A DNA stretch of 64,000 nucleotides from Rhizodiscina lignyota (lineage: Eukaryota). Below, piece by piece: positions 1,346-22,743 of the stretch; within the stretch, counting starts at the first letter, position 1; each line of letters begins with the position of its first letter. The stretch lies in the NCBI GenBank assembly GCA_010015805.1, contig ML978121.1, positions 1,674,001 to 1,738,000 of the forward strand, given 5' to 3'. The notes under the pieces were generated by a model. The model had not been told where the DNA came from. It was given only the letters and a program-made list of their open reading frames with translations, and ran no database searches. The translations under genes and the position numbers were made by a program.

Positions 1346-2470
1346 TCACGACATATCAATCACAAGTTTTCCGCCAGCGCCTTTATGGTAGTCTTCCACC
1401 AGTTCATTGAGCTTTGCCAGCGGATAGGTTCTCTTCACAGCTTTGACCTGGTGCTCCGCGGCGAATTTCAGCATTTCTCGCAAAAGCCTGTTGCTTCCAA
1501 CCAAACTGCCTTCAAAAGAGATTTGCCGAAACACGATGTCTCTTGAGGATATGTTGAAACCCTTCTCTGGGAATGAAACAACGATACACTTTCCACGATT
1601 GCGAAGTAGCTTGACAGCGTAGTCGAAAGCTTGCTGACTTTCGGGCAAGATGATGACAGCATCGAGACCCATTTCACTCCTTTCGGTCTTTCCCATTTCA
1701 CGACCAAGCTCTTGCACCACGCTCTCTGGATCTTCAGTTCTGGCGTCTATCAGCTTCGAGCCAGTGTTTAGAGACATTGCCAGTTCGAGTGGCTTGTCAG
1801 CAGCATCGATGCCGAAGACTTTGAGGCCCATCTTCGTCGCAAATTGCAGGCCTAGATGACCCAAACCGCCACCACAGCCCGATATTCCCACACTCTGTCC
1901 TGGCTTGAGGTTACACTTTATTAGTGCCGAATATATTGTGACGCCAGCGCACATAAGCGGAGCGACATCGACACAGTCCAAGCCCTGGGGTATTGGCGCC
2001 ACCTGCCTTGCATCGACGACCGCGTACTCTCGAAAACCGCCGGGTCCGCTCACTCCATTGTTAGCTGACTTTGGACAATAGACGGAATAGCCTGCTGCAT
2101 CACTATATGGGGTGCTCTCGTCAAGGCACTCAGCACAGGCCCCACAGGGGTGAAAGGCCCGGCCGGGGACTCCCAATCTCGTGCCTGGAGGGAACTGTTT
2201 CGCGGTTTCCGAAGCATTGGAAGGCAGATACACCACGCGGCCTGCGAATTCGTGACATCCCACGTGCGGGAATGATGCTGGGTTTGGAGGCATAAGCCCG
2301 GCGGCAAGAACGGCGTCTGTGTGACAGTAGCTCGCAGCGTCTACTTTGATAAGAATGTCGTACGGCGATGAACATGTTGGCACTTCTGTTTCCCTGAAAT
2401 TGTATGGTTGGTTGAATGCGTCAAGGAATTGCGCCTTCATGATGCGCGGTGGTTCTTCTGTAGCCGCCAT
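1346..2470 (-). CDS. Zinc-binding alcohol dehydrogenase (MDR/GroES-like)
   Basis: YCHTD, GCHEFAG (variant of GHE), structural Zn motif CGACAEC...C, PLMCAGVT, GCGGGLG; intronless; start taken at MAATEE (2470). Confidence 0.93.
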   Translation of the reverse strand: MAATEEPPRIMKAQFLDAFNQPYNFRETEVPTCSSPYDILIKVDAASYCHTDAVLAAGLMPPNPASFPHVGCHEFAGRVVYLPSNASETAKQFPPGTRLGVPGRAFHPCGACAECLDESTPYSDAAGYSVYCPKSANNGVSGPGGFREYAVVDARQVAPIPQGLDCVDVAPLMCAGVTIYSALIKCNLKPGQSVGISGCGGGLGHLGLQFATKMGLKVFGIDAADKPLELAMSLNTGSKLIDARTEDPESVVQELGREMGKTERSEMGLDAVIILPESQQAFDYAVKLLRNRGKCIVVSFPEKGFNISSRDIVFRQISFEGSLVGSNRLLREMLKFAAEHQVKAVKRTYPLAKLNELVEDYHKGAGGKLVIDMS

Positions 2471-2859
2471 TGCCTGAGTGGTGTTACGAATCGTGAAGGA
2501 GATAATGCACAGATGTCGGGCCAAATACTCGCGGTGCAAAATTGACGGAGTAGGAGTTTTACGTCGCTAACCGCGCTGCGCCGAACGTTAAAAAGCGATC
2601 ATGTTGATTTTGATAGCAACGTTCTGATTTGGGAGGTGTGTCTTCCCGGCGGCGGGAGTATTCCCATGGCTTGCAAGCATCCGATGTCGGACGGTGAGTC
2701 GCGAGAATGTTGTTCTTTTCGTATCGCGACTTAGATTTTAAAGATCACACAGATTTCATAATGCCCTCTACAGGCTCTATCAGAGGTATTCATTCAGCCT
2801 TTTTGCAACCCCTTTGTGCTGACGATGCCGCTAGCGTCATAGCCCACGGTGTATATCAG

Positions 2860-2914
2860 GATTTTCTCTTCTTTCACAGATTTTCCCTTCTTTCATAGAT
2901 TTTCTCTCTTTCAA
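2860..2914. repeat. Three-copy ~19-bp pyrimidine-rich tandem repeat
   Basis: gattttctcttctttcaca / gattttcccttctttcata / gattttctctctttcaa, between the two dehydrogenase genes. Confidence 0.75.
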
Positions 2915-3133
2915 TTAATTTGTTCAGGGCACTCCTGGGTCTTCGTTTGTTGGGTGCTTGAGCCTTGACAGGTGGGAGAGTGAATGTGGAGATGGACAGG
3001 ACACGGAGGTGAAGAGACGGGATATTACAGCTCCTCTACCTTCAGCTGCTGGAATTTCACCACTCACGAACGGTTACAGACTCTAGGGACCCTTCGAACA
3101 AGGACCGATGATTTGGGAATACATTATTTGAGC

Positions 3134-4304
3134 TTACTGCCACCCTCCACCAGGTTTCTTCACACTTTCGTTCAGCCATTTATATACGACTCTAGCGTCC
3201 TTCCCAGCGTATCTCGGATCAGCTGACGCCTCCTCGAACGCCTCCATCGTCGGTTTATCCAGAATGTGCCTTGCACCAACCATCTCGGCCAGATCAGTCC
3301 CCATCTGAAGCACCTTCTTGCACAGTTCTATCCGAAACCCACCCTCATAGTTACGACTAGCTGGCGCATTCGGGTGGATCCCAGGGACCGGATTCGAGTT
3401 GGATGTTATCCAGGTTTGGCCGCCGGACGAATTAATCACATCGGTTAGGAGCTTAAGATCCAGGCCCATCTTGTCTCCGATATTCAATGCCTCAGAGGAA
3501 GCAAGACTGACGACTGCGGAGATGTAGTTATTTATCACCTTGAAAGCAGTGCCAGCACCGACGTCTCCGCAGAGAAAGATATTGTCCGAACGTCCCATGT
3601 GAGACAAGACTGCCTTGATTTCGGGAAAAACCTCCTTCCTCGTCGACCCAACCATCAGACAGAGACTACCAGCCTCTGCTCCCATTGGGCCTCCAGACAC
3701 GGGGGAGTCAATGAAGGTCAGGCGCATTCCTGTCGGTAGTTTGAATTCCGCTTCTTCGACAGCTTTACTGACTTCCAAAATTGTGGCGACTTCAATCGTC
3801 CCGCATTCCATCAGGATCTTTTTCTTGGAGCCAGAACTCATCGCTTTCACTGCACCAGCAATAATACCAGTCTTCGGATCTAGGTATACTGCTTTGACGG
3901 CTGGGCTGTCAGGAAGCATAGTGATGACCATATCCTAAAGTGAGCGTAAGCAGATGCCCCATCTCAACAGCGTTGAGGTGAATATACCGCGGCTTGAGCG
4001 GCCTCAAATCCATTCTCAACGACGTCGATTTCGCCTTTGCCTTTCATTTGTGACTGATATTTTGAGATTGCATCTTTTGATATGTCGCAAATGACGATCT
4101 TGTACGAAGAATCAATCTTGGAGCGGAGATTCACTGCCATGCGGTATCCCATGACACCAAGGCCTACGAAACACCATGTTAATCGGATATTCTCAAGCGC
4201 AGGTGTACAACAACTTCTAAATGACCGTGATCCAACACTGAACTTTCTCGGAGGGCCAAATGGTTCTTACCAATGAAGGCAATGGTTTTAGCCGGGGTAG
4301 CCAT
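3134..4304 (-). CDS. 3-hydroxyisobutyrate/beta-hydroxyacid dehydrogenase family protein
   Basis: Spliced N-terminus MATPAKTIAFIG|LGVMGYRMA (intron 4164-4270), second intron ~3935-3987; DSPVSGG and FKVINN (catalytic Lys) motifs. Confidence 0.92.
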
Positions 4305-4720
4305 CTTGAGTAAGGCGATCTGTGATCAGTCTATACGTCTTCAAGATTCACACACTCCTTTGGGAATGAGGATTGAAGTGTCGTCTGCATCTTGCATGTC
4401 TGCTCTGGGGTACTCCACTCCAAGGGAAGCGAAGTTGCCGTCCATGTCACGGGAATGGCAAACAACAACCCCGCACTCACAATGACCCATTATGAGAGCC
4501 GAGTATTGACACCGAGGAATCGCCCAATTTTACAGACTCACGAACTGGTTACATTCCGGTACAAGATTCCCGGAAGGTGCTGTTATATGCTTTCTGAACG
4601 CGGTGATCATCCGATTGGGCAGGATGAAGCTGATATTGATTGATGAGATACGTGCAGGACAATTGGATGGAGGCTGGAGTTTCTCAAATGTATTCAATTC
4701 ATATTTTATTTCCATACGCT

Positions 4721-5692
4721 TCATATTGTCCCTGGGAAGAACTTATCCTTATTTTTCTCCCTCCACCCAATGTCATGAGCTACAATGACTTGAACTTGAG
4801 CGTTCTTCCCCAGGAAAGACTTGATCTGGTCGAGCGTCTTCGTTGCAGCTTGGGTGTCCATGTGCACAGTTCGTTGCCCACCGTGACCGTCATCATATGT
4901 GGCAATTCCCTTCTCTCCTTTCAGAATCCGCACATCATGACAGCAGTCGCCTCCCAAATACACCCAGCGGTCCTTGCCAATTCTGGCGAGCAGATTGACG
5001 TGGCCAATGATGTGGCCAGGGGCGTCAATGACCCAGACTGAACCGTCGCCGAAGAGGTCCAAAGCGTTCGGGAACCCTGCGAAAGACTGCCAGGTGTGGC
5101 CAGTCCGCCTCCCAGAAGCGATACTCTGGTCTCCCGAGCTCGTCGGTGGAAACTCAAACGTAGCCACCGTCGGAAGCAAGTCCTTATTGAATATCTCCGC
5201 TGGGTAGTGAGACCCTGCTCCGTTTTGGAGAACATGCAAAGTCCCACTGCCGACGAAGAATTTTGCGGTTTTATAGTCGCTTGGTGTACCGACATGATCC
5301 CAATGAACGTGGCTTAGAATGACAATGTCGATGTCAACATCCGGCTCCAGACCACCTGCTTGAAGACTTCCAGCACAATCGGGTTCCGTGATCACCGGTT
5401 GTCGGTTTGCAATGTGACTCGCCATTGCTGGCGTGTACTGTGTCAAGTCGCGCTTGAGGCCAAGGTCGAAAATTAGATTCATAGTGTCGCGGCCATTGTT
5501 CCCAAGGCTCGGATGCTGGATCAAGAAGCAAAGGGAAGGCACTGTAGCCCTCCTCTCTGGGTCCGCATCCGTGATGAAGAGATACTCCGGAAGAGTCAAA
5601 TGGCCGCCATCGAGCGCTGAGATGGTGACATATTTCTCATCTTCTTTCGCTGAAGGCAGCGAGTCGCCAGACTGAGATCCATTACCTGCCAT
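4721..5692 (-). CDS. Metallo-beta-lactamase-fold hydrolase, AHL-lactonase/lactamase-like
   Basis: SHVHWDHVG (HxHxDH), DLFGDGS, DAPGH, GGDCCH, VIVAHD; start at 5692 (alternative 5731). Confidence 0.92.
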   Translation of the reverse strand: MAGNGSQSGDSLPSAKEDEKYVTISALDGGHLTLPEYLFITDADPERRATVPSLCFLIQHPSLGNNGRDTMNLIFDLGLKRDLTQYTPAMASHIANRQPVITEPDCAGSLQAGGLEPDVDIDIVILSHVHWDHVGTPSDYKTAKFFVGSGTLHVLQNGAGSHYPAEIFNKDLLPTVATFEFPPTSSGDQSIASGRRTGHTWQSFAGFPNALDLFGDGSVWVIDAPGHIIGHVNLLARIGKDRWVYLGGDCCHDVRILKGEKGIATYDDGHGGQRTVHMDTQAATKTLDQIKSFLGKNAQVQVIVAHDIGWREKNKDKFFPGTI

Positions 5693-6152
5693 GTTGACCC
5701 TTGGGTCCGCAGCTCCGGCGTTGTTGAGCATTATTGACTCCGCGTGCGGAGCTATGTATATATTAGATAAACGGCCCGAAGGTACCTTTGTGACTTTTGA
5801 TGCAACTTTATGTGCCGTTGTAAGAAACAAGACGCGCCCGTATCGTGATTCGCTGTTAAGTCCGCTAAGTACAAAAGTGGCTAAAGAAGTGCAGCCCGCT
5901 AGCCTTGAGTCACGTGATGGTCCGTGCACGTTAGATGCGCCTCACCACATCCTGCCATGAAGTCTGTTCCTTGCAGAATGGGCCCGACTGCGGAGCCAAA
6001 GCCGACAAGGGGATGGCTCGCGGGGAAGCCGTCAGCTTAAAGGGATCGATACAACCGACACGTACCGAAGTGATTTATGAGTCTAAGGACGCTTGTGAGA
6101 GACGGGACACGCCAATTCAGAAACCCGCGTATTCGCCCCGTTCAAAATAAGA

Positions 6153-7001
6153 ATGGCATCATCAAGCGAGCTGAAGCAGCAATTTGAGGCCGAGCTCGGC
6201 AAAGAAGCTTGGAATGAAGGTTGGGAAGCAATGCTGAGATTCAGTCCGGAGGCATTCAAGACCAGTCTCGAACTGCATGCCGTTCCGAAGCGAAAGCAGC
6301 ATCTATCTCGAAAGATACAAGCTCTCCTAGCTTTGTCCGTAGATGCTTCGGCGACACATCTCTACGTTCCCGGGATCCAGGAGAAGGTCAAAGCAGCTCT
6401 CAGAGCCGGGGCAAGCGTCGCCGAAATCACTGAGGTAATTGAGTGCACATCAACATTGGGTGTTCATGCTTGCAACATAGGCGTTCCTTTACTTGTGGAA
6501 GTCATGAGAGAGGAGGGAGTTTACGATATCCATCCAGCTGCAGGACAGATGGACGAGAAAAAGGAGAAACTCAAGGAAGAATTTACGAGAAACAGAGGCT
6601 ACTGGCATACCTTTTGGGAGGACTTCTTGAAGCTGGATCCGGAATTTTTTGAAGCGTATATGAACTTTTCAAGCGTGCCTTGGGTAAAGGATGTCAATGG
6701 CGATGGAAAGGGCGGAGGAGTATTAGAGCCGAAGGTGAGAATCGCTTGTACAATGCCTCAGTTTGCCTCTAACGACGTGGTACAGGTCAAAGAGCTTATA
6801 TATTGCGCGTTCGATGTTGCTGCTACTCACCTGTATCAGCCGGGACTCAAGCTTCACATGCGAAACGCTCTTCGATACGGAGCTTCACCAGAGGAGATCA
6901 TGGAGGTCCTCGAAATTGCTACGGCGCTCAGTTTGCACACCGAAGAAACGGCATTTCCGATTCTTGCTCAGTGTGTAGATGACAATGCAGGCAAGCAATG
7001 A
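6153..7001 (+). CDS. Carboxymuconolactone decarboxylase / AhpD-like protein with two CMD repeats
   Basis: Duplicated ATHLY.PG...A..GAS..EI.EV motif; 51-nt in-frame intron 6735-6785 (gtgaga..ctaac..cag). Confidence 0.9.
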   Translation: MASSSELKQQFEAELGKEAWNEGWEAMLRFSPEAFKTSLELHAVPKRKQHLSRKIQALLALSVDASATHLYVPGIQEKVKAALRAGASVAEITEVIECTSTLGVHACNIGVPLLVEVMREEGVYDIHPAAGQMDEKKEKLKEEFTRNRGYWHTFWEDFLKLDPEFFEAYMNFSSVPWVKDVNGDGKGGGVLEPKVRIACTMPQFASNDVVQVKELIYCAFDVAATHLYQPGLKLHMRNALRYGASPEEIMEVLEIATALSLHTEETAFPILAQCVDDNAGKQ

Positions 7002-7044
7002 TTAACTAGATACCTTTCAATGCTATTCCTTGGATGGCCTCATT

Positions 7045-8042
7045 CTACTCCTCTTTGGTGAAGCCGAATGACTTATCCTCGCCCCATGTTGGATTCTCAA
7101 TTGGCTTATTCACCCACCACTTCCTCAAGAAGTCCTCGATCGACACAGGCCTGACTTCCGGGCACAACTGGTTCAATGTCGGCTTCATCTCGAAGCCACC
7201 TTTTGCGATGCAAATCCTGGCCTGGTTATAGAACCTCTTCTGTGGGACCTCGGCCATCTTTTCCATGTCCTCAATTGTGTTCGTTCTGACGAGCATCTTC
7301 TCACCGCCCCTGACCTTCTCGATCATCTTCACTACGTCGATGTAGCTCGCGTCGTCCCCACTCATCATACTCTCAGCTGGCCATTTCTCGAGATCAAGGC
7401 TCGCCACGACGAAGCGACAAATATCATTGATCTCCGTGTACGTGACCTTGGTTGTTCCGTCTCCTGGCAAGTCTGCTGTGCCGGCTGTCATGTTGATCAC
7501 AAAGTTCCACGGACGAAGACCAGCCAATGCCTCATCGTTGTGAGGCGCCAGCAGGTTCATGAACAGGCCACAAGAGTAACGTGTGTATTCCGTACCACTA
7601 CGTTGAACAGCCTCCCAAGCAGGGATCTTAAAGCGGTACTAAAATGCAGAACAAGTTAGCACAACTCTAGACTTCATCTTTACACCACAAGATAACCGAC
7701 CAGATCAACGCCTTCATAGGAGCCATGTGCAAATTCAGAGGGCGCAAACCGCTTGACCCCCGCAACACGAGCAGCTTCGATCACTGCGAGTTGGGGATCA
7801 GATTCAGTGAGAACAGCGCCGGCGCCCATACAGCTGATAACAGTATGAACACCAGTGAGGACTTGAACAAGCTCTCCCTGGTTGCTGTAGTCTACAACGC
7901 AGACATTGACACCAAGCGCAGAGAGCTCCGGCTTTGCTGACCGTGAGAGAAGTGTGATGGTATGCTTCTTTGACTTTACGAGATGATGGAGAAGGGTAAG
8001 GCCAAACCCGGAGCTTGCACCAGCAAGTGCTACGTGTACCAT
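7045..8042 (-). CDS. NmrA-like / isoflavone-reductase-family NAD(P)-binding protein
   Basis: VALAGASSGFG, VDY, AGVKRFAPSEF; intron ~7639-7700; downstream GLFMN..., DICRFV. Confidence 0.9.
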
Positions 8043-9017
8043 GTTGGTCTGGCTGGAACGTAAAGCAAATCGAGAGTGCTGGAAAAGCTGAAAAAACTCA
8101 AACAGATGAGAATTTGCGATAACATAGTGCAATGAATGAAACAAGCCCCTTTGTCCATTTATACTTCCCCTTCTCGGAGATACTCCAAGCTGTCGCCGTC
8201 CTTGAGTAACACTACATGAGCCTCCAATTGATAATCTTAACAGCGACGGAGTTAGAGAGAGCTTATGATTCGCCAAAGCCCTCCAAACGAAGATATTTTT
8301 GCGATAGCTCTGTAGTCAAAGCAGATGTTGTCTGTTGATTGCAATGTCAGGGAGGAGGTTGGGTGGCGGCACCAGCCAATCAGGGCCAGGTCGGTACGAC
8401 AAACGACCCGAAAACCTGCTCACCCGGGGGCTCCTTCGGCCCATCGTGAGGGGTTTTCGAGAGGAGACAGCGCTGGTGTATTATCTTTCCTGTACTCTCT
8501 CTACATTTGCTCTTTTTCCAAGGCCAAAATCTTTCGCTCCAAGGTTATCTCCTCGTCCTGCTGCTTTGGACTCCAAACTCTGTTTGTAACGTCGTGCGTC
8601 CTTAGGACATTGAAAGTCCAGTCCGCTGTGGGGTTATCGTACGGGGTACTCCGCAGATTACCGACGGACGGGGTGTAAGAGCTGCTTGCGATCATTAGGC
8701 GTTCCTTATCGTGCAACTTGCCCGGTGACCAAACATTCTGTCCTCCTCAGGCTTGCTTTAGGAATTTCATATCGAAATTATGTCTTGCAAATGCTCCAAC
8801 AGTCTCATGATTGGCCTGTTTCATCTGGAAGCTCTCTCTCCAAATTGACGATAATTCCTACTCTTCTTCGATTGACTTTCTTGTCGAGCAGTTCTGTGAA
8901 CAACGAATCTAATCTGCTTGAAAGAATCTGTTTTGATGTCATCTAGCATCGAGTCCAGTCCAATCACTTGAGCTTACTAAAATCCATCTGCTTCAAGGTC
9001 ATATTCATTACACGCGG

Positions 9018-9047
9018 CCGCGGACGCTGAGGCCCGCGGACGCTGAG
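9018..9047. repeat. Direct repeat ccgcggacgctgag x2
   Basis: 14-mer at 9018 and 9034 (16-bp period). Confidence 0.75.
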
Positions 9048-10038
9048 AGCCGCTAGGTCACAGAGCAATGCTTACGCCGGTTTATATGTGAAGGCTACAT
9101 TTTTGCCAATTCGATAAGGCCCCAGCAAGCGTCCGGAGCGAGAAGCAACAAATTCTGGGAGTACGTATGATGGATGTGGCTGTGCTCGAATTAAAATTCT
9201 CCGTCGCAACATACATAACAGAAGGACTGATGAGTACGTTCCATATCATCCCCTCAACGTACAATTACTTCGAATCTCTTCAACTAAATAAATATCCCCT
9301 TAGATTCATCCCATGTTGAGCTTGGAGCCGCTTGCTCTCCGACTGTGCTGGATCCCACGTGGCCCTCCAAGGACCGAATTCCGGGTTGATGAGTTATTGT
9401 CGCCCAAGTCCGTCTCCACGTTTTCAGTCCGCGTGAGCCCCATGGGCGAAATTGCATCGAATCGAACGGCAACTTGAACGGCTTCAAGAACCCGCTTCTT
9501 TACTGATTTCGGAAATAAAGCGGGTTTGTGAACCCATACCCACTGCGGGTTGTGGAGAAGGTGGAGCGGAGAGGACCATTCTTGGGCATGCCTAGCAAGG
9601 TCTTTCCCCTGATCTTATCGTTCCTCACATCCTCCAAGCCTTTTCTCACCTCTTGGCCCACCTTGACGGTTTCGGGAGAGGTCACACGGGGAGAAAACGG
9701 AACAAAATCGCCACGGAAGTATACATCCGCACGGTGAAGTTCGGCACTTATGCTGTCACCACGGTACCTTAGTCCTGTCTCTTCGAGAGTGGAACCATGG
9801 TTGCAGCCATGCAATGGAATCCAAATATCAAGTCCAACCCCAACTGCTCTGAACGTTTCAAAATGCGGTCAACTTTCCGAACGGCGAACGCTTTGTCCTC
9901 CTAACTTACCCCAGTCAATGATATTCTTTTAGGAAATCTAGTATAATCTTATCATTCTTCCAGATTCTATTTCGACTCCAAAGGATGCTCTAAGCCAAAC
10001 TTTTCTCAATTTTCATCCCCACATCCTGCTCTTCAACC

Positions 10039-12110
10039 ATGGAGGACGAAACGAAAGACGAGAAACACTTCGAGGAATTCACGGTCGAAGATGAATCGCC
10101 GGAAGCTATTGAGTTCAAGAAGAAGGAGCGAAAGCTCGTCAGAAAATTGGACACCTTTGTAGCTCCGGTGGTAATGATGCTCATGCTCATTTCCTACCTT
10201 GACCGCGGTAATATAGGATTTGCAGCAACCCAAGGCATGAATGAAGACCTTAATTTGAAAGGATCTGAATACAACGTATGTCATCTCTCACTTTCAACTG
10301 TTCAGTCTAGACTAATACTGGCACAGATTGCGGTATCATTATTTTACATCACGTATATTCTTGCTGAGGTGTGTATTCCGACAACATTCTTGCGCGAAAG
10401 TACTGAACCTAGGCAGTTTCCGGCTTCACTTCTTGTGAAGAGGCTTAGCTTCAAGCGCGTTATGCCCGCAATCGCCTTCGGCTGGGGCCTCATTTGCATG
10501 GTAAGCAAATCGAGCTCCTTTCTCCAAACTAGGACAAATGCTCACTCGTATTTAGTGCGTCGGCTTCGTTAAGGGCTTCGCGTCCCTAGTTGTACTCCGA
10601 TTACTACTTGGTTTCTTCGAGGGTTGTCTTTTCCCAGCTCTGACTTTGTTCCTCGCCAATTGGTATAAGCGTGAAGAACTCGGTGAGCGTGGGCCACAGT
10701 AAACAGAAACTCAAATATACTAACACTAGAAAGGTCTAAGAGTATCATATCTCTTCATTGCATCAGCCTTATCCGGAGCTTTCGGAGGTCTCATCGCACT
10801 CGGTATCTTGTTCATGAACGGGACGGCTGGCTATGCAGGTTGGCGATGGTATGGCTAATTGCAACTACCGAAGGAGCTAGTTTCCAGCGAGCGAACAGTC
10901 TGCGCATCCACCTTGTTAAAGTTACCCCTGGTACTTCCAAGAAGCTTCCTCGTATTGGTGAAGTTGCATTCGAGGTTGTTAGGGCGTAGCTTGCATAGCG
11001 TACCTTGGACGATTTGCTTCTCCTTATTACGTAAAAGAGACGCTGTTGCAGGTCTTGTTCGCTCGCCGGAATCTAGCTCCTTCATCTTATCATATCGAAG
11101 AAACTAACAGTGAACAGGCTCTATATCATCGAGGGCATCATCACCATTGCCTTCTCGTTTATTTGCTACTTTCTTGTGCCGGAAAATTACTCCACGGCGT
11201 ATTTCCTTAACGCAGAAGAGAAGGCTATCATGAAGCACCGCTCAGAGCTGATGGAGTCGTATAGTGGTGGCGACGGCAAATATACGAAGAAGGATATCAA
11301 GCTGGCGTTGACGGATATCAAGACTTGGCTCCACGGTATCCTGCAGGTGGCCGTTGTCACAATCCTGTACGGGTTTGGCACATTTTTGCCTGTGATCCTG
11401 AAATTCGGCTTCCATTACTCCACTTTACAGTCTCAGTATCTTGTCATTCCAGGTGAGTCTATTAAACTCCTAAAAGCTTTGCTATACACTCACAATTCGA
11501 CAGTTAACCTTTGGGGCGCACTATCATACCTCGTCGGCGCAATCGTACGTATCTCTTTAGGACTTTCGCTGTTTCATTCCACCCCCCCAAAACCAACCAA
11601 CCCCCTTTCTCCCCGGGAATAATCCTGCTGATTCCTTCATAGCTGGCCGATAGATACAATGCAAGATGGATAACTCAAATGATCTGCGCGCCCATCGGAA
11701 TAGCGGGTTATGCGATTCTGCTCAATCTGGACAAGGTCTCTCCCGGAGTCCAATATTTCGCCACTTATTTAATCTCTACGGCCTGCTACCTCTGCACGGG
11801 GACGAATATTGCGTGGCACTCGATGAATACCGCTCCGGATGGAAAACGCGCTGCTGCACTCGGTGTCCAACTGACGCTCACAAACATCGGAGGTGTCATC
11901 AGCGGACAGATATATCGCGACCCTCCAAATTACACTCTTGGACATGCCTGGTCTTTAGGATCTCTCGGCTTTGCCTGGTGCGGGTGGTGGATCTTATTGT
12001 TCATCTACAAGAGGCGTGACGCTTGGAAGGCAAAGGCGCGGGCGGAGGGAGTTGTTATCCCATCCGAAGACTTTTCAGACCGTTCTCCAGAGTTCAAGTA
12101 TCAGTACTAG
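10039..12110 (+). CDS. MFS transporter, anion:cation symporter (allantoate/nicotinate permease-like) family
   Basis: LVRKLD, SYLDRGNIG, LRLLLGFFEG, WYKREE, GWRW|LYIIEG, GKRAAALG; about 7 introns. Confidence 0.92.
10870..11083. mobile_element. MITE-like foldback element inside an MFS intron
   Basis: 28-bp inverted repeats with 2 mismatches (10870-10897 gaaggagctagtttccagcgagcgaaca; 11056-11083 tgttcgctcgccggaatctagctccttc) in an unusually long ~270-nt intron; no clean TSD. Confidence 0.6.
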
Positions 12111-12268
12111 CGAGAGGGGATCTTTGTACACTGTCTGCTGATACATTGGCGAGGAAGGACGTTCAATTTGCAGGTACCAAGCTTGGTGTCAAAAGCGAGG
12201 CCTGCCTGTGCAAATCTGAACATACGCGGTGTGTCAAATAACTTGTACAACGCTGAAGTAGTCCAAAA

Positions 12269-14141
12269 TCAGAGATCATCGTCTTCGCTATCAATACCGC
12301 TCTCCCAACCTTCCGTATACTCTTCTGCCATTCCCCTCAATGCTTCGCCGATCCCATTCCGATCATCGACATTCACGCCCGGCGAGCGCAGGACGATCTG
12401 CTCCAGATTCTGAAGCCTCTTTGAAACGGCGGAACTGGTAGAAAGTGCCGCTCGCATCGCTAGAGTGTCCATACCTGCAGTATCGACGTCGAAAATTCGG
12501 GGAAAGCTAGACAACAGCGGGAAGAGTAGAGAGCTTTGGTGCCTAATGTAGTGTCAGTTGGGAATAATGTAGAGTGGATGTGATATACGAAACATACCTG
12601 ATGATGGTAGTGCCCCCTCCACTAGCGAAGCGATCTCTCGAGGCAATATTTCCTTCCTCGATTTCAATGGTAGGCTTCCACGTCCCTCGAAGGCTCTCCG
12701 CTCTCCCAAATATATGATCTTCAGTGCCACCATGCCCATTAAGATGTGTTCGAGCTTGCTGTTGATCAGCAGAGAATAGACGAATTTCGAATCGATCAAT
12801 CTTCGATGGCGCATCTTGATCATCGTTTACAGCTCCGTTCATCATGCGATGATCTCCGTCTCCGTTCGCGGCCGAAGCTCCTGACAGGGCAGACGCGCTT
12901 GCAGCACCGTACTCGAGCTCAGAGACTTTTCTTACTCCGTCTCGATTTAGTGCCAATTCCAAGTCTCCGAGCAACACCATCCGGCCATCCACTGGACGAA
13001 GCCGTGCAGGAAGTGTACAGCTCTCGACCGCGGCGGCTTGGAGAGCGCCAATCTGCCACATGGATTTGTCGACGTGCAGATATGATGGCGGGTGCTGCGT
13101 CTCACTGGAGACCGGAACGTAGATTGAAGCGTTTGGCACTATCGCCGAAAGTGACCGAGATGCATCCAATGCATGCTTTAATCTTCTCTCCTACGTTTGT
13201 AAGAGCTTTGACAGACAACCGTGCAGATTTGACTCACCCTTGTGTCTCCAATGGGTCCCTCAAGTCCCCAAGTCCATATCCCAGTTTTGCCGTACTCATC
13301 TCTCAGTCGTTCTAACCAACTTGCGGTCCAGCCGCCCCAAGCGTCTCCAACATCAGCGAAGATCTGAAAAGCTTGTAGCTGATCGCATTCTTCCGCAAAA
13401 TGCCTTACATCTCTGTCCAAGAGGTCATGCTCCCGGTCGAGGACAGCGAATAATTCTTCTCCAGTCTGCCAGTCGCCAAAGGAAGAAAGCTGAGATGAAG
13501 ATGGTATGTCATTTAGTGACACAGGGACTAGCGAGCGCGGATGGTAATAGACGCGATTGAAGTCTGACCAGTATCGTACTGTTGATGAGCTCAACGGCGG
13601 AGGAGCTGTACCTTGTTCCAGATGTACTTGGTACGGATGCGGCTGAATCGGAGGTTGTCGGTGAATGGTTGGAGAATTGTTCCTGCATCACATTCAGCCA
13701 TATAAGGCAAATGCTTTGACTATTTAACCCTACCAGAGATTTGAATTATTTCCCTGATCACTCGCTTCGTAGAGTGCATTGAGCTTGCGAAGCGATCCAA
13801 AGTTGCTCTTCAAATCGTAAACGAGGGCCCTCGGCATGAACGTGTCGGAGCCATCAGATCCAACTCCAGGCTGAAAGAAAAGTCTGCGTCAACCGACTGC
13901 TTTTGACCAAGAACACCGCAGTAAAGAGTTTAACGGAATCAGAAGGTTTCATGCTTACTCGAAAATGAATGTCATGATCTACGGGAGATTCATCTTCAGC
14001 GGAATACGTGAAATACGACTCCTATGCGATATCAGCACTGGGGCAGGCTATGAATTCCGAACTCAATACCTGAGTGTTCCAGAAATGTGTTCCAAGGTAA
14101 TTTCCTTGTTCGCCGAACTGAAGAGTCACGATCTCATGCAT
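12269..14141 (-). CDS. DML1: Misato/Dml1 tubulin-related protein (mitochondrial inheritance)
   Basis: [61 protein letters not shown]; multi-exon. Confidence 0.93.
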
Positions 14142-14490
14142 ATCTTCCAAAGTCGTTTATGAATCTTCGAATTCACACTTGAAAGAATGCAATGACAAGC
14201 TGTTTACGCTGTACTCGGCATCTTTCTTCAAGAGCTAGCTCAAAACAGAGTTGCTGCTATGTAAAGAGTCGTCCTCAAGAGGTCGCAAGGTTTCTCCAAA
14301 ACCTTCTTGTTGAATAAGTTTGATTACATAATCTATCTCTCTCGATGACATGGAATGATTTCTCTGCGAACGCGCTCCACAATTTTGTCCGTTCAGTTTT
14401 GCTGCGATTCCGCGCAAATGATTCAGTATTTTGTTATACATATATCATAAAATATATATTCAAGAACTCAAGGTTTGAGTTGCTTCTCGA

Positions 14491-14526
14491 ACGCGTCCAC
14501 ACGCGTCCACACGCGTCCGGACGCGT
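14491..14526. promoter_or_regulatory. Four MluI cell-cycle boxes (ACGCGT) at 10-bp period, ~350 bp upstream of DML1
   Basis: acgcgtccac acgcgtccac acgcgtccgg acgcgt. Confidence 0.6.
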
Positions 14527-14637
14527 CTGTGGTTTCAGCTGCGGCCGCCCTGGCTCCGTCTCTTTCATCCTTATAAGCTAAGATCGTGTCTCTCGTCAGC
14601 TGAAAATCAAGTTCTCTACATTCATCTGTATGCTCTG

Positions 14638-16268
14638 TTACAGTTTGACGTCCGCAGCAACTCCCACAGGCGCAGGGAGATTTCCACTCTCTCTTTGCAC
14701 CTTCCGATCCCCCAAAGTGACACCAATTTTGGATACCACCAGCCATGCAGGCAAAAGGGAAACCGCCCACAGGCCGAAATTGAAGTAAACGCCTCCAACC
14801 GAAGCCATGATGGCGACGCTGTTAACTCCGTACTACGCATGGTGAGTTTCCATCTGCCCAGGAGAGATCTTCACTACTTACGCTGATGGCTTGCCATGCT
14901 GATTCTGTCCCTCGCAACAAGCCTGCGATGCGAATAACTTCCGCTAATGAATTTGCCAAGTTGCTGACCACGAAGTAGAGATACATGTAATTCAACTGGA
15001 ATCCTGCAACCCACAGCAAGGAGAGCGCGAATGCCTTGCCAAAGCCGTGGTCAACCCAGTCGTACGATGGATTCGTTCGGTGGAAGTCAGTCACCAGTAT
15101 TGTCGCCCAGATCCACCATGCGCCTTGCAGTCCGAGGATCGTAAAAATTGCTGCTCTGGCACGTGTTTTGAGCGCAATCTTGTTTCGATCCAGGAAAGCT
15201 CCCAATAGATTGCCTGCGATTATGGCAGTGATGCCGGAAAGGAAAGATCCAAGAGCTCTCGCTCGGACTGAAAACCACAATGATTCAAATGTGAACATGA
15301 CTGCCTCGGAGTAGACTCCTTGCCCGATTAGTGGAACGATCAACAGGAAATCCCTGCTGAAGAAGAGCTTTGTTGTGAGCTTCATTTCCTTCCAGTTGCT
15401 GTTGGTGATGCTCATGTCCACGGTCTTTCCGTCCTTGCGCTGAACTTTGGAAGGCTTGTTCAAAAGCAGCCCTGCAAATGGTCCCAAAGCTTGCAGCGCA
15501 ATGAATGCCTCATAGACGTGGTAAGAGACCTTGCCTGCCACATTGTTCTTTGCGTTTATTCCAAGATTAATGGCCTATTCAACCGTAGACTAATTAGCAT
15601 GGTCTTCAGGAGTCAGGGAAAGCGTTTTCTTGAGACTGCTTACGCCGCCAATGACCTGTCCACCAACTCGGAAAGAAAGCCAGAAACCTAAGAAGCGTCC
15701 TTGATTGTACGGCTCTGGGTAAGAAAGGGCGATTGCGGCCTCCGCCATCCAAAACACGCCGGCTGAGATGCCACAGAGGGCCGCTCCGAAGAGGACAAAC
15801 CATTGCGTTCCATACCTATTGTTTGTGTATAGGCCAGCTGCATAAGGAGCATATCCTATTGTGCCGATTATGAGCGCCCACTTGATGCCGATGTACCGAA
15901 CGATGATGCTGCTAAAAGCACATGAGACGACCATAAGGCAGAATGTAAGTGCGTTTGCACCATTGACCAGATATGGTTTCTCTTCGCCGCCGGCGCCCAA
16001 TGAATTCATCGCTGCTTTTCTTAGTCACCATCTCGATCTTGCAGAAGAAATTGCTTACCGCCCCATATACCAGGCGCGAGTAGATTACATATTCCGAGCA
16101 CCAAAGCATTATAAGATGTCGAACGATACCATTTGACTGCGCATACTTCAGCAACGACGACTATTTTGGGCAGCACTTTCAATCACCCTTCACTCTCCTC
16201 TCGCCGCCTACAGCTCCGTCATTCTCCAAAGATATCTCCGCATCGGATTTAATATTCTCTTCAGCCAT
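14638..16268 (-). CDS. UNC-93-like MFS membrane transporter
   Basis: MNSLGAGG, GISAGVFWMAEAAIALSYPE, FSVRARALGS, LLRGTESAWQA; last exon ends ADVKL* at 14638; about 3-4 introns. Confidence 0.9.
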
Positions 16269-17401
16269 TGCGGCGATGTGAGATTATCCAAAGTTAAAAG
16301 CGCTCAATTGGATGGGTTAGCAGCTGACATGAATGATCTAGATATTTAAAATTCTATAACGGCCTCGTGTTGGCACAGGACAAATTTTATACTCTCGCAT
16401 TAATTAACCACAAGCATTTTCAACATCTTCTACCCCACAAATTGACCGACGCCATATGAGGAGACGTTCCTCAGTGGGTACAAGCAGTACCTATCTCGGC
16501 AAGCACGCCGTTGGTGGCGTGCTCGCACGAAATCGCATCCTTGTCATTGCATGCTTCTTCTCATCACAACGTCCAAACAACTCACGAAAAGCTCTGCGCA
16601 TGCAAGGCATTTGCTGCCATGCTGGTGAATTCTCTCTCTGGGGTCTCGCCAACAGTGTAATGTGTCGGCACTGAAATCGGTTTCCAATCGGCGAATCGGA
16701 TCAGCCCACGAGCGGAGACAAGCATCTCATCGTCTTTTCCGGCTTGAAGAAGTCTTGCCATCGCAGCGGCTCATCGTTGATGCAATGAAAATTGATGTAG
16801 TGATGAGGTGCGGAACGAGTCGCCTGCTTCGACGCGTTGTTATGAAATTGCGCGAGTCAACCGCCTCATGTCGCCATTCTAAATCAAGGTTTGCCGGTAT
16901 TCAACACGAGTGGGTCTGCTCCAGTTTGTTCTTATCTGTCGAGCCATTATCGTGTGGACGTTATAGAGCTTGCCGCCTTAATACGAAAAGCCATAGTATC
17001 CTAAATGAGAAAAGTGCTTCTCTGACGGCTCCAACGCTCTCCACTCCCTGTTTCAAAAGACGACCGTGTTGACTATCCTGCTAGCAGATAGAGTCTGCTC
17101 CGTTAAATGAAACACGACCATAACAAGCTCCTGGTCGCCAACATCAAATTGGTTGAAATTCTTTGAAAATAACCTTAAGCGAACGAATGTGATTGTGTGA
17201 AGAGGTTAGCAATAGTGTTAAGCTAGCGCTAAACTAATCTCGGGAAGGGGTGTATTCCCTTCGGATGACGCTATGCCGTTTATAAGTTGCGTGAGGGAAT
17301 AACAGCTACCCAGTTAGCTGCAACCTTCGCAGAAACTCTCTAAATTAAAAGTGCCGCTCCCATCGCTACTTCCAAACCTGGCATTACAACAGACACTCAA
17401 A

Positions 17402-19345
17402 ATGTCACCGCATCTGTTAGACACGCTGACAGACTCCGCTTCGAACCCAAATATCCAGAATGGCTTTCCGTCGAATATCGGCTCCGGGGTCAACAGCGAA
17501 ACTGTACACATCAGCAAAGTACAGCCGGTAGCTCCCGTGCATAGCGAAGCAAAGTTTGAGCTTGAAGATCACCCAATCGATGAACCCCGAAGCTTAAACG
17601 TACGTCCAATCCTAAACAACTGTTTAAGCGATTCTTCTAAGATTCAATAGGTTGCAGTAATAGGCGCAGGGATAGCTGGGATTACAGCGGGAGTGCTGTT
17701 ACCAGTTAAGGTACCGGGTCTTCGATTGACCATATTCGAGAAAAACCCAGACGTTGTAAGACCACCAATATGACCCATTCTACTTCAAGTTGCTCATGGA
17801 TTACAGTCAGGAACGTGGTTAGAGAATTCATACCCAGGTGTAAGGTGTGATATTCCGGCACATGTTTATCAATCGACATTTTCGCCAAACACGCAGTGGA
17901 CAGAAGAGTACGCCCAAGGCCATGAAATCCGAGACTACTGGCAAGGCGTTGCGCGCAAGTACGACGTATACAAATATCTGCGGTTGAACTCGCATGTCAC
18001 ACTCGCCGAATGGGACCCCGAGAGCGCTCAGTGGTTGCTCAGTGTTAAAGATTTGAAAAAAGACTCCACCGACACGACATCCGTGGAAAGGTTCGATGTC
18101 GTCATTACAGCCATTGGACGTTTCAATGCGTGGAAGCTCCCAGATATCCCCGGTATAGAGACTTACGAAGGCCATCTCCGCCATTCAAGCAACTGGGATA
18201 AATCATTCGATCCAAATGGCAAGAGAGTTGCTGTCATAGGCAATGGAGCTAGCGGTATCCAAGTTGTTCCGAGCCTGCAGCCGATCGTAAAGCATCTTGA
18301 CCACTACGCCCGGAGTCCAACCTGGATCGCAGGCTCCTTTGCCGGAGAGGGAGAGGGGCGCACATTGGAGCCAAAGCTGTACCCCGTCGAAAAACTGCAA
18401 TCTTTCGAGGATCCAGAGGCATATTATAAGTTCCGAAAGGAGTTTGAAGCCAAGTTTTACCGCCGTTTTGAAACCATCTTCAAAAACACAGAGGGGAATG
18501 AGAAACTGCGAACAGATTTCAAAACTGCAATGACGGAACGTCTGAAGGAGAAGCCTGAGCTTCTTGAGCAGATCCTCCCGGATTTCTCACCCAACTGCAG
18601 GAGGCTGACGCCTGGTCCGGGATATTTAGAGGCACTGACGAAGGATAATGTGAGCTTCATCCGTACTCCAATCGCCAGGTTCACCAAGGAAGGCATCGTG
18701 ACGAACGATGACACAGAGCGAAAAGTCGACGCCGTCATCTGTTCGACTGGAGCAAATAGGGATATGCTGCCGCCTTTCCCTATACGAGTACCGGGCGTGG
18801 GAAGCATCCAGGATGCATGGAGTCCGTCACCGTACACCTACTTGGGCGTTGCAACACCCTCATTTCCAAATCTCCTCTCCGTCCAAGGGCCTAACGCCAC
18901 CGGACACAGTGGGACTGTGCCGAACCAGCTCGAAACTCAGGTGACATACATCGCACAGCTCCTGCGAAAAGTGACGCAACAGGGCATCAAGACTTTCTCC
19001 CCCTCCAAAGCTGCTACAGATGATTTCGTCGCGTACTGCGACGCGTTCTTTGCACGCACCGTCTGGTCTGAGTACTGCAGTTCGTGGGCAAACGGCGGAA
19101 AACCTGGAGGAAGGGTGCAAGGTCATTGGCCGGGAAGCGCATCGCATCTGAACATCGTGCGAAGGAGCCCTCGGTGGGAGGACTGGGAATGGACGTACCG
19201 CACCCCCTCAGGCAATCGCTTTGCGTACTTTGGCAATGGTTGGACGGCGAAAGAGTTACAGGAGGATTCGGACCTGACACCATATTTGAAGAAGCCAGAT
19301 GAGATTGACTTGCGGATTTATCATGAGGAGTGGTTCACTGTTTAA
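17402..19345 (+). CDS. Flavin-containing monooxygenase, Baeyer-Villiger type
   Basis: VIGAGIAG, GTWLENSYPGVRCD, YEGHLRHSSNW (FxGxxxHxxxW-like), VIGNGASG, CRRLTPGPGYLEAL; introns ~17600-17650 and ~17756-17809. Confidence 0.93.
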
Positions 19346-20011
19346 GCAGGAAAGTCTTGAGAACGAAAGGGAGAGATGCCATTGTCAATGTCAACTACAT
19401 ACGGCGACGGACATCGTATTCATTAGGGCCGATCTAGGGAATCCCTGCAAAAGGCTCGGCTATAGCTCTTCCCAAAATTTCTTCGATCCAAATTGAAGGC
19501 TATTTACTGACTTATTAAGTTGTGAAGAACAAGAAGAAGAAAGTACAACCGGGCAGAGGCTCCATTGTTGACATTGCTGGGTGTGACTACAGATGTTGTG
19601 TCATATTTTGGCCATCCCTAACCCCTTCGCAGGTAGGTAAGCCCCCAAAGAGGCCAACAATGAAGTCAGGATATGTTCATTTCCGTTGCTCGTTAGTCGG
19701 AGATACAGGGTTGCGCGGTATCTTTGAATGACGCCTGTCGTGGTTGATATCCCACCGTTTCCACGGCGTGTCCGACTCAGCCGGTATCTCTCAGTGGGTG
19801 GTCGTGTGCTCTTGATCTTTTGCGGCAAGGAAGCGACCTGATCGTATTCAGGGCCCCCCTGGTGGTTCATGCGAAGCCTAAACAGAGTAAGGTTAAAAGT
19901 CCTGCCTATCCCGTTGCTTGTTGACTCGGCCCCCAGTGTCGGGTCGCGTTGTGGGGTTTAGCAGAATCTCAACTCGCGATCAAAAGCCGTACATCTGACA
20001 CGGGTGCTGTA

Positions 20012-22163
20012 GGAGATCCGACGGTCACGTGCAACAGATCACCAAATGTAACACCATCCTAAAATTTAACCACGAATTTCAAAGTACGATTTCTTAATAA
20101 CTATAAGAGATAATTACTTTAAATTAAAACTAGTGATAGATTATATTATTACGTATAAGTTTTATTAAGAAAACCTTTTTAGAAAGTACTTTATTAGCTT
20201 TATTTTACGCTCTAATCGTGTTTAGGTCGCTTTAAGTACTAGAATAGTATTTACCTTATAAAAAATCTTAACCTCTTCTAGAATCTGCTAATACTTATTC
20301 TTCTACTTCTTTAACTTCTTATTAGCTGCTTTAGCTTTAGATTAAAGCTATTTATTAGCCTATTTTTCTATATAAGCCTCCTAAAGTTATATTTTTTTCT
20401 AAGCCGTCTCCTCTACCTTTTATAACCTCGCTACCGCTAGCTATTCTCGCCTTTAATTAGCTAAGCGCTCTTTTTCTTATTTAGCTTCTTATTTACGCTT
20501 CTTTTCCTTCTATTTCTATACTTCCTATTATTATTAATCTTTCTCTTCCTATATAATTTACTCTTATACTAGCTAAACCTTTAAAGGTAAGTATATAATC
20601 GCTTTATAGTTAGATTTATTACGAAGTCGATTAAATAGTAGCTTACCTTAGTAGCCTTTAAGCTTTTCTACGCCTAGTACCTATTTTAAACTATCTCTTT
20701 TAATTCTAAGCTAGTAGTTTTTAAAGACTAAATACTTAATATAGTTAGTAATCTTTATAATATTCTCTTAAATTAATTTATTAATAGTCTCTTTTAGAAC
20801 TATATAAACCTTCCTTTAATTAGATACTAAGAGTACTAAACTATTTAAAGTACTTAAGGCTAGCTAGGATATAGGTCTAACTTATAAGAGTACTATTTTA
20901 GGATTAAAGGGCTAGATACTAGCCTATTAGAACCTTAATTTAATAATATTTTTAGTAAATACTAATTAAAAAGCCGGCTAAAAGAGTAAGAAGAACTACT
21001 ACTTACTAAGGGAGGTTAGTCCTTAAGTCTTTATCTACTAGGTATCTAGATTTATACTATAATAATACCTAATACTTAGAAAGTAGGTAAGATCTAGTAG
21101 CTAGAGTCTATAGGTTAAATAAGGTAGAAATACTACTATAAATACTTTATACTTATTATACTAATCTAGAAAGCGTATATTAATATAGCTATTATAGCTA
21201 TTAACGATTAGAAGCTAATAATTACGACCGTTATATACTTTCTTCTTACTAGCTAGGTCGAAAACTATTATTAGCTACTATATTATAAGGTCCTTATTAG
21301 TCTAGCCGCTTAGCGTTACTATAAAGTAGTAGTTATACTCTTTAAGATCGAAATTATAAAGCTAGCTATCTAGAATATTACCTAGAGCGCCTAGGTAGAT
21401 TAGAGTTAGTTATAATATAGTACTATCTATATAGTAGCTAGTAATAAGAGTAATCTAGTTATAAGAGCTATCTTAGCTTATACTAATAAGTCGACGTTTC
21501 TAAGCTTCTTTTTAGGTGAATATACGCTTTATCTTATATAAGATACCTAGTAGAAAGCCCTTTTTATCTATATTATAATAGTTTTCAGCTCTAATATTAT
21601 ATTACTAGATTTTCGATTATAGCTATTAAGTTAGTAACGAAGTAAGGTAGTATAGTAATACTTACTAGGTTAAAATATAGCTTATACTTATATATATTAT
21701 CTACCTTCTTTTAGCTTTAATCTATACCTACTAGGTAGCTTAATAGTAACTCTTTTTTATACTATTAAATAAAGCGAGAAGCCTACTTTTTTCCTAGCTC
21801 TTTCTTAGCTAAATTACTAGTAAAGCGCTAGATTATTAGCTATATAGGAGGTATACCTTACTTAGTAAGTATATCGATATAGTTTATAAGGTCTTTTTCT
21901 TATTAATACGAGAGTAATGACTAGTATTCTTGTAAACGGCCTTTTAGCTTCGATATGCCTTTATAGCAGCGTAGAAGTATACTAGGTATAACCCTATACT
22001 TTTTAGCTATTACCCTATAAAGAGGAGGATCTTAGCTTTTCAAATCTTTAAGCGCGAGCTCAATTACGCTCATATTAGTAGAGTTATTAAATTTTGAAAT
22101 TCATTGATTTCCGGTGCGTGGTGTTGCATTAGGTGATCTGTTGCACGTGACCGTCGGATCTCC
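20012..22163 (-). mobile_element. pogo/Fot1-type (Tc1/mariner superfamily) DNA transposon, RIP-inactivated
   Basis: 45-bp TIRs (20012-20056 and 22119-22163, 2 mismatches), TA on both sides, very AT- and TpA-rich interior. Confidence 0.95.
20110..22073 (-). pseudogene. RIP-destroyed DDE transposase
   Basis: Relics: MSVIELALKDL (HTH region), YNIDKKGFLLG (NxDExGF), LLIVNSYNSY (DGHxSH), TYRL*LLDL (QPLD); many stop codons; 3' end approximate. Confidence 0.88.
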
Positions 22164-22743
22164 TAGGCCAATCAACTTATGGTTTCAGCCCACGAGCGTG
22201 TACTTTAGACAGCGCCACCCCCGGTCTACGCACGTTGAAGCTTAGACTCCCGTCATTCGGGAGAAGCCATCAACGTCAACACTTTGTTGAAGGAATCATC
22301 CACCAGCTGCACCAAACCCGCGCGATGCCGCGTTCCACGCGCCCTGCCCGCCAAGGCTGCTTAGAGCTTCGACTGCAGGTCTCCCGGCCACCAAAATTTT
22401 GGATGCCGCTATATCGTTCGCTTTACCGTACACGGCAGCTCCATTGTACCTCTGCGAGGCCCGTACTCTTCGACATGCCTAATTGCGAATGTGTCATTGG
22501 CGGGTCCCTGACCCCAAGCCATGTACATTGTGCATCATGACGCAGCATATCGACGTGGGTAGCAGGGTAGCTACAGCATTTTTCGCTCGAAGCTCTGTGG
22601 TCCTGCTTCTCGGCGTGCAGGCTTCGAAGAAAACGCCTCGAAGCTTCAAAAGCTTGCTTGTCCCCTCTTCCTAGCGGGGAAGTCGCTCTCCTACCGGTAG
22701 GTTGCAATTGTTGCCAATTGCTATCTTCTGATTGCTTGTCAAT

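Follow-up and report, generated by a model that had tools for sequence, protein, structure and literature searches.

Positions 1346 to 12110 of a 64,000-nucleotide stretch of Rhizodiscina lignyota DNA (contig ML978121.1, positions 1,674,001 to 1,738,000; hereafter the window) hold what gene content and synteny identify as a reduced, rearranged copy of a larger fungal gene cluster, built around a double-domain protein of the carboxymuconolactone decarboxylase (CMD) fold that we call CMD-L. This catabolic cluster is real and undescribed. Its local limits are narrower and its distribution much wider than first proposed for this DNA, and it probably breaks down a small ring-containing acid. No description of the gene set was found in the literature searched, a search that most subscription journals lie outside. 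The cluster represents a testable orphan pathway common to ascomycetes of four classes and to bacteria, from three phyla, that are associated with plants, litter and peat. It occurs in the tractable hosts Podospora anserina, Paraburkholderia and Acidiphilium, and it gives a genomic context to a CMD-fold family that has had a public structure since 2007 and no assigned function. It may also illustrate cleanly how a cluster can assemble convergently around genes acquired by horizontal transfer.

Linkage in other fungi and the extent of the cluster

Metagenome contigs were scanned with CMD-L and the best 80 of 119 loci were kept; 30 of these have low GC and nearly all come from fungi (in the CMD tree, L082 falls with bacteria), forming 17 groups at 88% nucleotide identity. 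The full fungal set comprises CMD-L, a small PcaC-like CMD protein (CMD-S), two beta-hydroxyacid dehydrogenases (HADa and HADb), two metallo-beta-lactamase (MBL)-fold hydrolases (MBLa and MBLb), a zinc-dependent alcohol dehydrogenase (Zn-ADH), a major facilitator superfamily (MFS) transporter (MFS1) and a regulator with two C2H2 fingers and a Fungal_trans domain, and all nine genes are present in locus L091. Among the 30 loci, MBLb is found in 20, CMD-S in 14, HADb in 13, MFS1 in 8, the regulator and ADH in 6 each, MBLa in 5, and HADa in 2. An MBL gene lies beside CMD-L in 12 of the 17 groups, the remaining five being contigs of ≤4.3 kb. Orthologues of the window genes recur at such loci: Zn-ADH at L031, L038, L051, L087, and L091 (62 to 65%), HADa at L051 and L091 (63% and 69%; one clade, support 100/99), MFS1 in 6 of the 17 groups (best segments 48 to 72%), and a matching divergent MBLa/CMD-L pair at L012 (71 to 72% identity).

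The same linkage is visible in named genomes. In 11 named fungi, drawn from three classes, CMD-L and MBLa sit 2 to 6 genes apart: the interval is four genes in eight Chaetothyriales (e.g., HMPREF1120_09220/09224 and G647_03413/03417), two in Glonium, and six in Acephala and a Mollisiaceae isolate; these are the pairs visible in both match lists, without a denominator, and the eight Chaetothyriales are related to one another. In P. anserina, Pa_0_1130 is a CMD-L relative, and the accessible part of one report annotates Pa_0_1110, 1120, and 1140 as an alcohol dehydrogenase, a carboxymuconolactone decarboxylase, and a 3-hydroxyisobutyrate dehydrogenase (HIBADH), respectively (PMC4835503). Since the ADH and MBL families are large in R. 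lignyota (48 and 16 family matches), adjacency in one genome is weak evidence, and it is the conservation of linkage across genomes that lifts the cluster above chance.

The original prediction treated 1346 to 19345 as one unit. Its description of the region holds up in part: all six consecutive gene models in 1346 to 12110 are open, a 460-bp spacer separates the divergent MBLa and CMD-L genes, DML1 and a divergent MFS/BVMO (Baeyer-Villiger monooxygenase) pair follow, and the proposed uncharacterised catabolic cluster of lactonase-type hydrolase, dehydrogenases, CMD protein, and transporter is borne out by linkage of orthologues in other fungi. As a single unit, 1346 to 19345 does not survive, conserved co-occurrence being limited to five genes (Zn-ADH, HADa, MBLa, CMD-L, and MFS1). 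NmrA, which had been counted as a member, DML1, and MFS2 are each found at 0 of the 30 low-GC CMD-L loci and are rejected as members on synteny; for BVMO, too, no such linkage was seen. MFS2 had been assigned to the ACS family and is UNC-93-like by its Pfam match (UNC-93/MFS_1). No polyketide synthase, nonribosomal peptide synthetase, or terpene synthase core is conspicuous in the open reading frame lists of the window, which were not scanned systematically for them.

Part of the missing set lies elsewhere in the genome. CMD-S and HADb are adjacent on contig C9 of R. lignyota, 61 to 62% identical to the cluster copies, which share 66 to 89% among themselves; C9 HADb (98/90) and C9 CMD-S (93) are each sister to the respective cluster clade. 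The C9 pair probably completes the route in trans. Searching the gaps of the window for remnants of the missing cluster genes gave nothing better than E 0.04. The reduced layout is not unique to R. lignyota, because L012 keeps the divergent MBLa/CMD-L pair.

Protein features, shared motif, and bacterial counterparts

CMD-L folded poorly from its single sequence (pLDDT 51), and an alignment-based model (pLDDT 94.5) was used instead. The closest structure match, and the sole close one, is PDB 2Q0T (E 6.5e-76, 45% identity), to which the model aligns over the whole chain with a TM score of 0.88, placing CMD-L by full-length sequence and fold among 2Q0T-type double-domain CMD/AhpD-like proteins. 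2Q0T is Bxe_B0980 of Burkholderia xenovorans, a structural-genomics entry titled putative, and no paper naming this locus was found in the literature searched. Across 79 aligned sequences, T68, E94, H105, E197, D204, T208, H209, and H218 are invariant, and there is no invariant Cys pair; C107 (65/79) and C201 (70/79) sit in separate domains. A peroxidase role is unlikely because the His/Asp/Glu/Thr residues are invariant and the redox CxxC is absent. Of the predicted CMD/AhpD gene, the CMD fold stands, in double-domain form, and the AhpD-type redox pair does not.

MBLa carries the motifs HVHWDH, PGHxxGH, GDCCH, and AHD, with a full dinuclear site including D-x-x-H, and thus has the metal ligands of AttM/AiiA-type enzymes (HxHxDH + H + D + H). 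Its nearest solved structures are acyl-homoserine lactone (AHL) lactonases and 4-pyridoxolactonase (E 1e-7 to 1e-6). It scores far below the AHL lactonase cut-offs (AttM, 51.5/390 bits; AiiA, 22.5/375 bits) and has His in place of the Tyr that, in the aligned AHL lactonases, follows the bridging Asp by three residues (GDCCH versus VDAAY). HADa has the motifs GxGxMG and DxPVSGG and the catalytic K202; the corresponding Lys is kept in all aligned HADs. Exon 3 alone (266 of 336 aa) scores 178.6 versus 291.6 for HIBADH TIGR01692. The nearest solved structures are 3-hydroxyisobutyrate dehydrogenase 2GF2 for fungal HADa and 2-hydroxymethylglutarate dehydrogenase 3CKY for bacterial HAD2; the catalytic Lys is the same in these enzymes and the cluster HADs, whereas the HADa clade has a C-terminal KV in place of the family's KD.

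The cluster genes also share an upstream motif. GGGGTA, found post hoc, is present in 24 of the 32 intergenic regions that were picked by hand from the cluster, versus 4.7 expected, at a density of 1.91/kb compared to 0.22 and 0.52 in non-coding controls that were not restricted to promoters. We take the regulator's fingers to resemble those of Adr1/AmdX and the motif to resemble the G-rich sites of Adr1/AmdX and CreA. The motif is present in two of the four cluster regions of the window and in the C9 HADb/CMD-S spacer. Together with the C2H2 gene of the full cluster, this shared motif may hint at co-regulation. Within the window it is non-discriminating, because it also occurs once in the MFS2/BVMO spacer.

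A similar gene set is found in bacteria. A genome scan with a bacterial CMD-L query, of which the best 80 of 168 loci were kept (a sample biased to close relatives of the cluster-type query), gave a short-chain dehydrogenase (SDR) or aldehyde dehydrogenase (ALDH) in 74 loci, HAD2 and a cupin in 70 each, CMD-S and HAD1 in 66 each, and GntR and MBL genes in 63 each. CMD-L, CMD-S, and at least two HADs occur together in 66 of the 80 (41 Pseudomonadota, 24 Actinomycetota, and 1 Chloroflexota), with an MBL as well in 52. On plasmid pACRY02 of Acidiphilium, the genes form a compact nine-gene unit flanked by insertion sequences, and the copies annotated on plasmids of Acidiphilium, Sodalis, and Paraburkholderia conform to this gene set; proteobacterial copies have an extra PrpD-family gene. 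None of the operon's cupin, NIPSNAP, ALDH, SDR, and PrpD has a match in the fungal loci (E 1e-6), the one cupin at L066 being unrelated.

Quick, midpoint-rooted trees bear on the origin of these sets. The fungal CMD-L clade groups with cluster-type bacterial CMD-L (SH-aLRT 98), and fungal CMD-S falls among actinobacterial CMD-S with weak support. In the HAD tree, which was made without canonical bacterial HIBADH, all 18 fungal rows, clustered or not, are split from all 44 bacterial rows (100/100). Fungal and bacterial cluster MBLs both carry D-x-x-H and are only 15 to 25% identical; the best match of the bacterial cluster MBL is PDB 8X78 (E 8e-25), to which no substrate could be tied. Because fungal CMDs nest among bacterial ones and fungal HADs and MBLs do not, the trees suggest that the two CMD genes were transferred and that the other partner families were recruited independently in fungi and bacteria. 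A bolder version, which we put forward tentatively and hold to be possible rather than probable, is a cross-kingdom pathway whose substrate, a lactone-acid or branched hydroxy acid, would be common and derive from plants or soil. Two CMD genes would have passed from bacteria to filamentous ascomycetes, where native HADs, metallo-lactonases, a transporter, and a C2H2 regulator would have been re-recruited, rebuilding the bacterial logic from non-orthologous parts, and the 2Q0T-type double CMD would act as a beta-oxo-acid decarboxylase or C-C lyase of a new kind.

The cluster works like a lactone-catabolic unit and yet falls outside PcaC, AhpD, AttM/blcABC, and FDB1. In Agrobacterium blcABC/attKLM, an MBL-fold lactonase is followed by dehydrogenases, including a semialdehyde dehydrogenase in the unit. 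Our cluster likewise has a lactonase-type MBL gene and dehydrogenases, but these belong to other families, two CMD proteins are added, the AttM cut-off is missed, and no ALDH match was obtained in the window or the 30 loci; the blcABC/AHL analogy drawn originally is not supported. The beta-ketoadipate pathway shares the CMD fold and the logic of lactone opening and decarboxylation, and one bacterial CMD-S (L059) narrowly passes PcaC TIGR02425 (156 versus 155.7 bits); however, the cluster's CMD-L is double-domain and far under that cut-off, and no ring-cleavage dioxygenase, cycloisomerase, or alpha/beta enol-lactonase was seen in the conserved set. Fungi use ChdA for this step (PMC10406623). 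Fusarium FDB1, as far as described in the sections available, is a fungal cluster that also has an MBL, an MFS, an NmrA-like gene, and a regulator, the latter present here at other loci (PMC4726666, PMC10512309, PMC5610705); it differs in its amidase, dienelactone hydrolase, and salicylate hydroxylase, which are absent beside MBLa, in having no CMD or beta-hydroxyacid dehydrogenase in those sections, and in a Zn2Cys6 rather than C2H2 regulator (PMC4726666).

Proposed pathway and competing explanations

With moderate confidence, and from sequence, we propose that a reduced copy of a conserved carbon-source catabolic cluster, found in filamentous ascomycetes and with a bacterial counterpart, carries out import, ring opening, beta-hydroxyacid oxidation, decarboxylation, and alcohol or aldehyde oxidation. 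MFS1, presumably an anion:cation-symporter-type MFS by its motifs, would import a small carboxylate, for which a lactone-acid (or lactam-acid) or the corresponding hydroxy acid is the likeliest candidate, a carboxylate being suggested because the transporter in the cluster is of anion type. The MBL would open the ring, and oxidation of its product by the beta-hydroxyacid dehydrogenase would yield a beta-oxo acid or semialdehyde. Removal of CO2 would fall to the CMD-fold protein, which conserves His/Asp/Glu/Thr and lacks a redox CxxC, and the ADH (SDR or ALDH in bacteria) would process the alcohol or aldehyde so formed. That HAD, CMD, and MBL are each doubled may reflect two rounds or two stereoisomers. 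Hydroxymethyl-branched or carboxy-lactone acids can be named as substrates by way of speculation, because the nearest structure to bacterial HAD2 is 2-hydroxymethylglutarate dehydrogenase.

Several findings weigh against this pathway. The closest CMD-L structure is uncharacterised, CMD-L of the window fails the PcaC cut-off (23.6 versus 155.7 bits), and residue 78, in its first CMD domain, is Lys, versus His in 71 of 79 aligned sequences. Distant CMD-L relatives (~35 to 43% identity) occur in other contexts, and the bacterial sample carries the bias given above. Neither the MBLa/CMD-L spacer nor the ADH upstream region contains GGGGTA, which the MFS2/BVMO spacer does, and the R. lignyota genome has no clear orthologue of MBLb (best matches, 45 to 47%) or of the regulator (36 to 44%, versus 45 to 69% among cluster regulators). 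In Aspergillus niger, the consulted part of one study reports that the AhpD-domain protein NRRL3_00837 is needed for growth on protocatechuate and inactive in assays, and that a PcaC-like gene is dispensable (PMC10406623). Because of these results a CMD fold is no proof of decarboxylation, although the genes are likened by domain label only.

The A. niger protein, essential and yet inactive in the assays that the same excerpt describes (PMC10406623), also speaks for an unlikely but serious alternative, in which the catabolic unit is real and the CMDs are isomerases, lyases, or accessory proteins, on a substrate that may contain nitrogen (a lactam, cyclic imine, or amide), with HADs possibly acting on C=N. 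One bacterial CMD-L adjoins hydantoinase/oxoprolinase A and B subunits (L063:1698-6821), the bacterial cupin resembles the mandelonitrile-lyase family (125 versus 140 bits), and the PrpD-family gene of proteobacterial copies points the same way. All aligned HADs nevertheless retain the beta-hydroxyacid catalytic Lys, a bacterial CMD-S passes the PcaC cut-off, and neither an amidase nor a nitrilase was noticed at the fungal loci, where no search was aimed at them. That the window copy is a relic or repurposed sub-module no longer running the full pathway is less probable still: the placement of CMD-S and HADb on another contig at low identity, the missing MBLb and regulator orthologues, the H78K change, and the local addition of NmrA would fit, but all five frames are intact, L012 keeps the divergent pair, Lys78 is common to P0010, P0016, and P0050, and the C9 genes are sister to the cluster clades with GGGGTA in their spacer. 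The dinuclear-metal motifs of MBLa and its nearest structures, together with the use of 4-hydroxybutyrate by some beta-hydroxyacid dehydrogenases, would suit a system that, like blcABC, uses or quenches bacterial signalling lactones (AHL, or gamma-butyrolactone via 4-hydroxybutyrate to succinate), or an FDB1-like lactam detoxification. We regard this as very unlikely, given the missed AttM/AiiA cut-offs, the His for Tyr in MBLa, the lack of any ALDH match in the fungal loci, and two CMDs for which a blcABC-like route has no use. In the available part of a table of Podospora responses to two Serratia species, Pa_0_1110-1140 are blank (PMC4835503), and FDB1 differs in gene content, with an amino-acid transporter besides the three enzymes named above (PMC4726666).

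The original prediction began the pathway at the BVMO, as a cyclic-ketone entry step. The encoded protein has two Rossmann motifs and both type I fingerprints, YEGHLRHSSNWD and SGTWLENSYPGVRCD, with Y for F and S for A/G at the first positions. These intact motifs, the distance of 5.3 kb from MFS1, the GGGGTA in the MFS2/BVMO spacer, the proximity, in Burkholderia sp. YI23, of a flavin monooxygenase, an esterase, and a HIBADH to a distant (43%) CMD-L relative, and the fact that fungal pathways can be incompletely clustered would allow the BVMO to make a lactone that feeds the cluster. We find this barely credible. The BVMO is present at 0 of the 30 low-GC CMD-L loci (four groups, L013, L076, L087, and L091, have enough flank to show it at the distance seen in the window), and none of three annotated bacterial operons of the cluster type has one; in named genomes its relatives lie apart from the cluster, with Mollisiaceae EG329_007243 and 007553 on other contigs than 010653/010659, a Phialocephala relative 502 accessions from the cluster, and g4934 versus g0282 in the Dothideomycetes genome NU459; and DML1, single copy in R. 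lignyota, stands between MFS1 and the BVMO. By synteny, the BVMO is most likely a bystander outside the cluster.

Gene coordinates and surrounding observations

Table 1. Features of the window, with cluster membership as judged by synteny
Feature	Position	Strand	Description
Zn-ADH	1346..2470	-	Zn-dependent medium-chain (MDR) alcohol dehydrogenase; 374 aa, intronless; Pfam ADH_N/ADH_zinc_N; Zn motifs; cluster member
HADa	3134..4304	-	HIBADH-like beta-hydroxyacid dehydrogenase; 336 aa; Pfam NAD_binding_2/11; cluster member
HADa exons	4304-4271, 4163-3988, 3934-3134	-	
GGGGTA	4407..4412	+	Upstream of HADa; candidate site for C2H2 regulator; others at 8643 and 9907
MBLa	4721..5692	-	Lactonase-type metallo-beta-lactamase-fold hydrolase; 323 aa; cluster member
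MBLa/CMD-L spacer	5693..6152		Divergent, 460 bp
CMD-L	6153..7001	+	Double-domain CMD-fold protein; 265 aa, intron 6735-6785; Pfam CMD; cluster anchor
NmrA	7045..8042	-	NmrA-like Rossmann protein; ~311 aa, one intron near 7639-7700; Pfam NmrA; local addition
MFS1	10039..12110	+	Transporter; 482 aa, 8 exons, open model with GT-AG introns; cluster member
DML1/Misato	12269..14139	-	Housekeeping gene; Pfam Tubulin_3, E 2.5e-55; non-member, right edge of cluster
MFS2	14600..16009	-	UNC-93-like MFS, 3' end approximate; Pfam UNC-93/MFS_1; non-member
BVMO	17402..19345	+	Type I BVMO-like flavin monooxygenase; 613 aa, 3 exons; non-member

At L012, the lineage closest to the window, a DyP-type peroxidase gene (2081-3298) lies downstream of CMD-L, in the position that NmrA takes in the window. 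The 2-kb gap between NmrA and MFS1 (8043-10038) is rich in G-rich motifs (11 TTGGAG and 11 SYGGRG), and no gene remnant was found there.

Related genes occur elsewhere in the R. lignyota genome. A second CMD-L (47%), of a sister clade, lies outside any such cluster at L092/L093 (contig C10, 294,500-295,300). On contig C18 (L094/L095; 91,000-105,000), an MBL 51% identical to MBLa and a beta-hydroxyacid dehydrogenase are clustered with succinyl-CoA ligase beta and alpha, an Ldh_2-family dehydrogenase, an MFS, a Zn2Cys6 regulator, and a SLAC1 acid transporter; this set has the look of a further orphan pathway for an organic acid. A paralogous ADH (52%) and a C2H2 regulator are found together at L204 (contig C10, 800,000-810,000), with a P450, a 2-hydroxyacid dehydrogenase, an enoyl-CoA hydratase-like gene, and a molybdopterin oxidoreductase as neighbours.

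Compared with the fungal loci, the 20 kb to the left of the window gave no conserved link except one 34-residue match. An AtuA-family (acyclic terpene utilisation) gene, not conserved at fungal CMD-L loci, lies ~2 to 3 kb left of the window (L096:6996-8053), with an ABM-domain gene and an MFS farther left. To the right of the BVMO, 20010-22165 is an AT-rich element (~28% GC) that resembles a DNA transposon, with terminal inverted repeats of ~47 bp and strong indices of the repeat-induced point mutation type (TpA/ApT, 1.90; (CpA+TpG)/(ApC+GpT), 0.11), dispersed copies of which occur on contigs C13, C1, and C2 at 76 to 95%.

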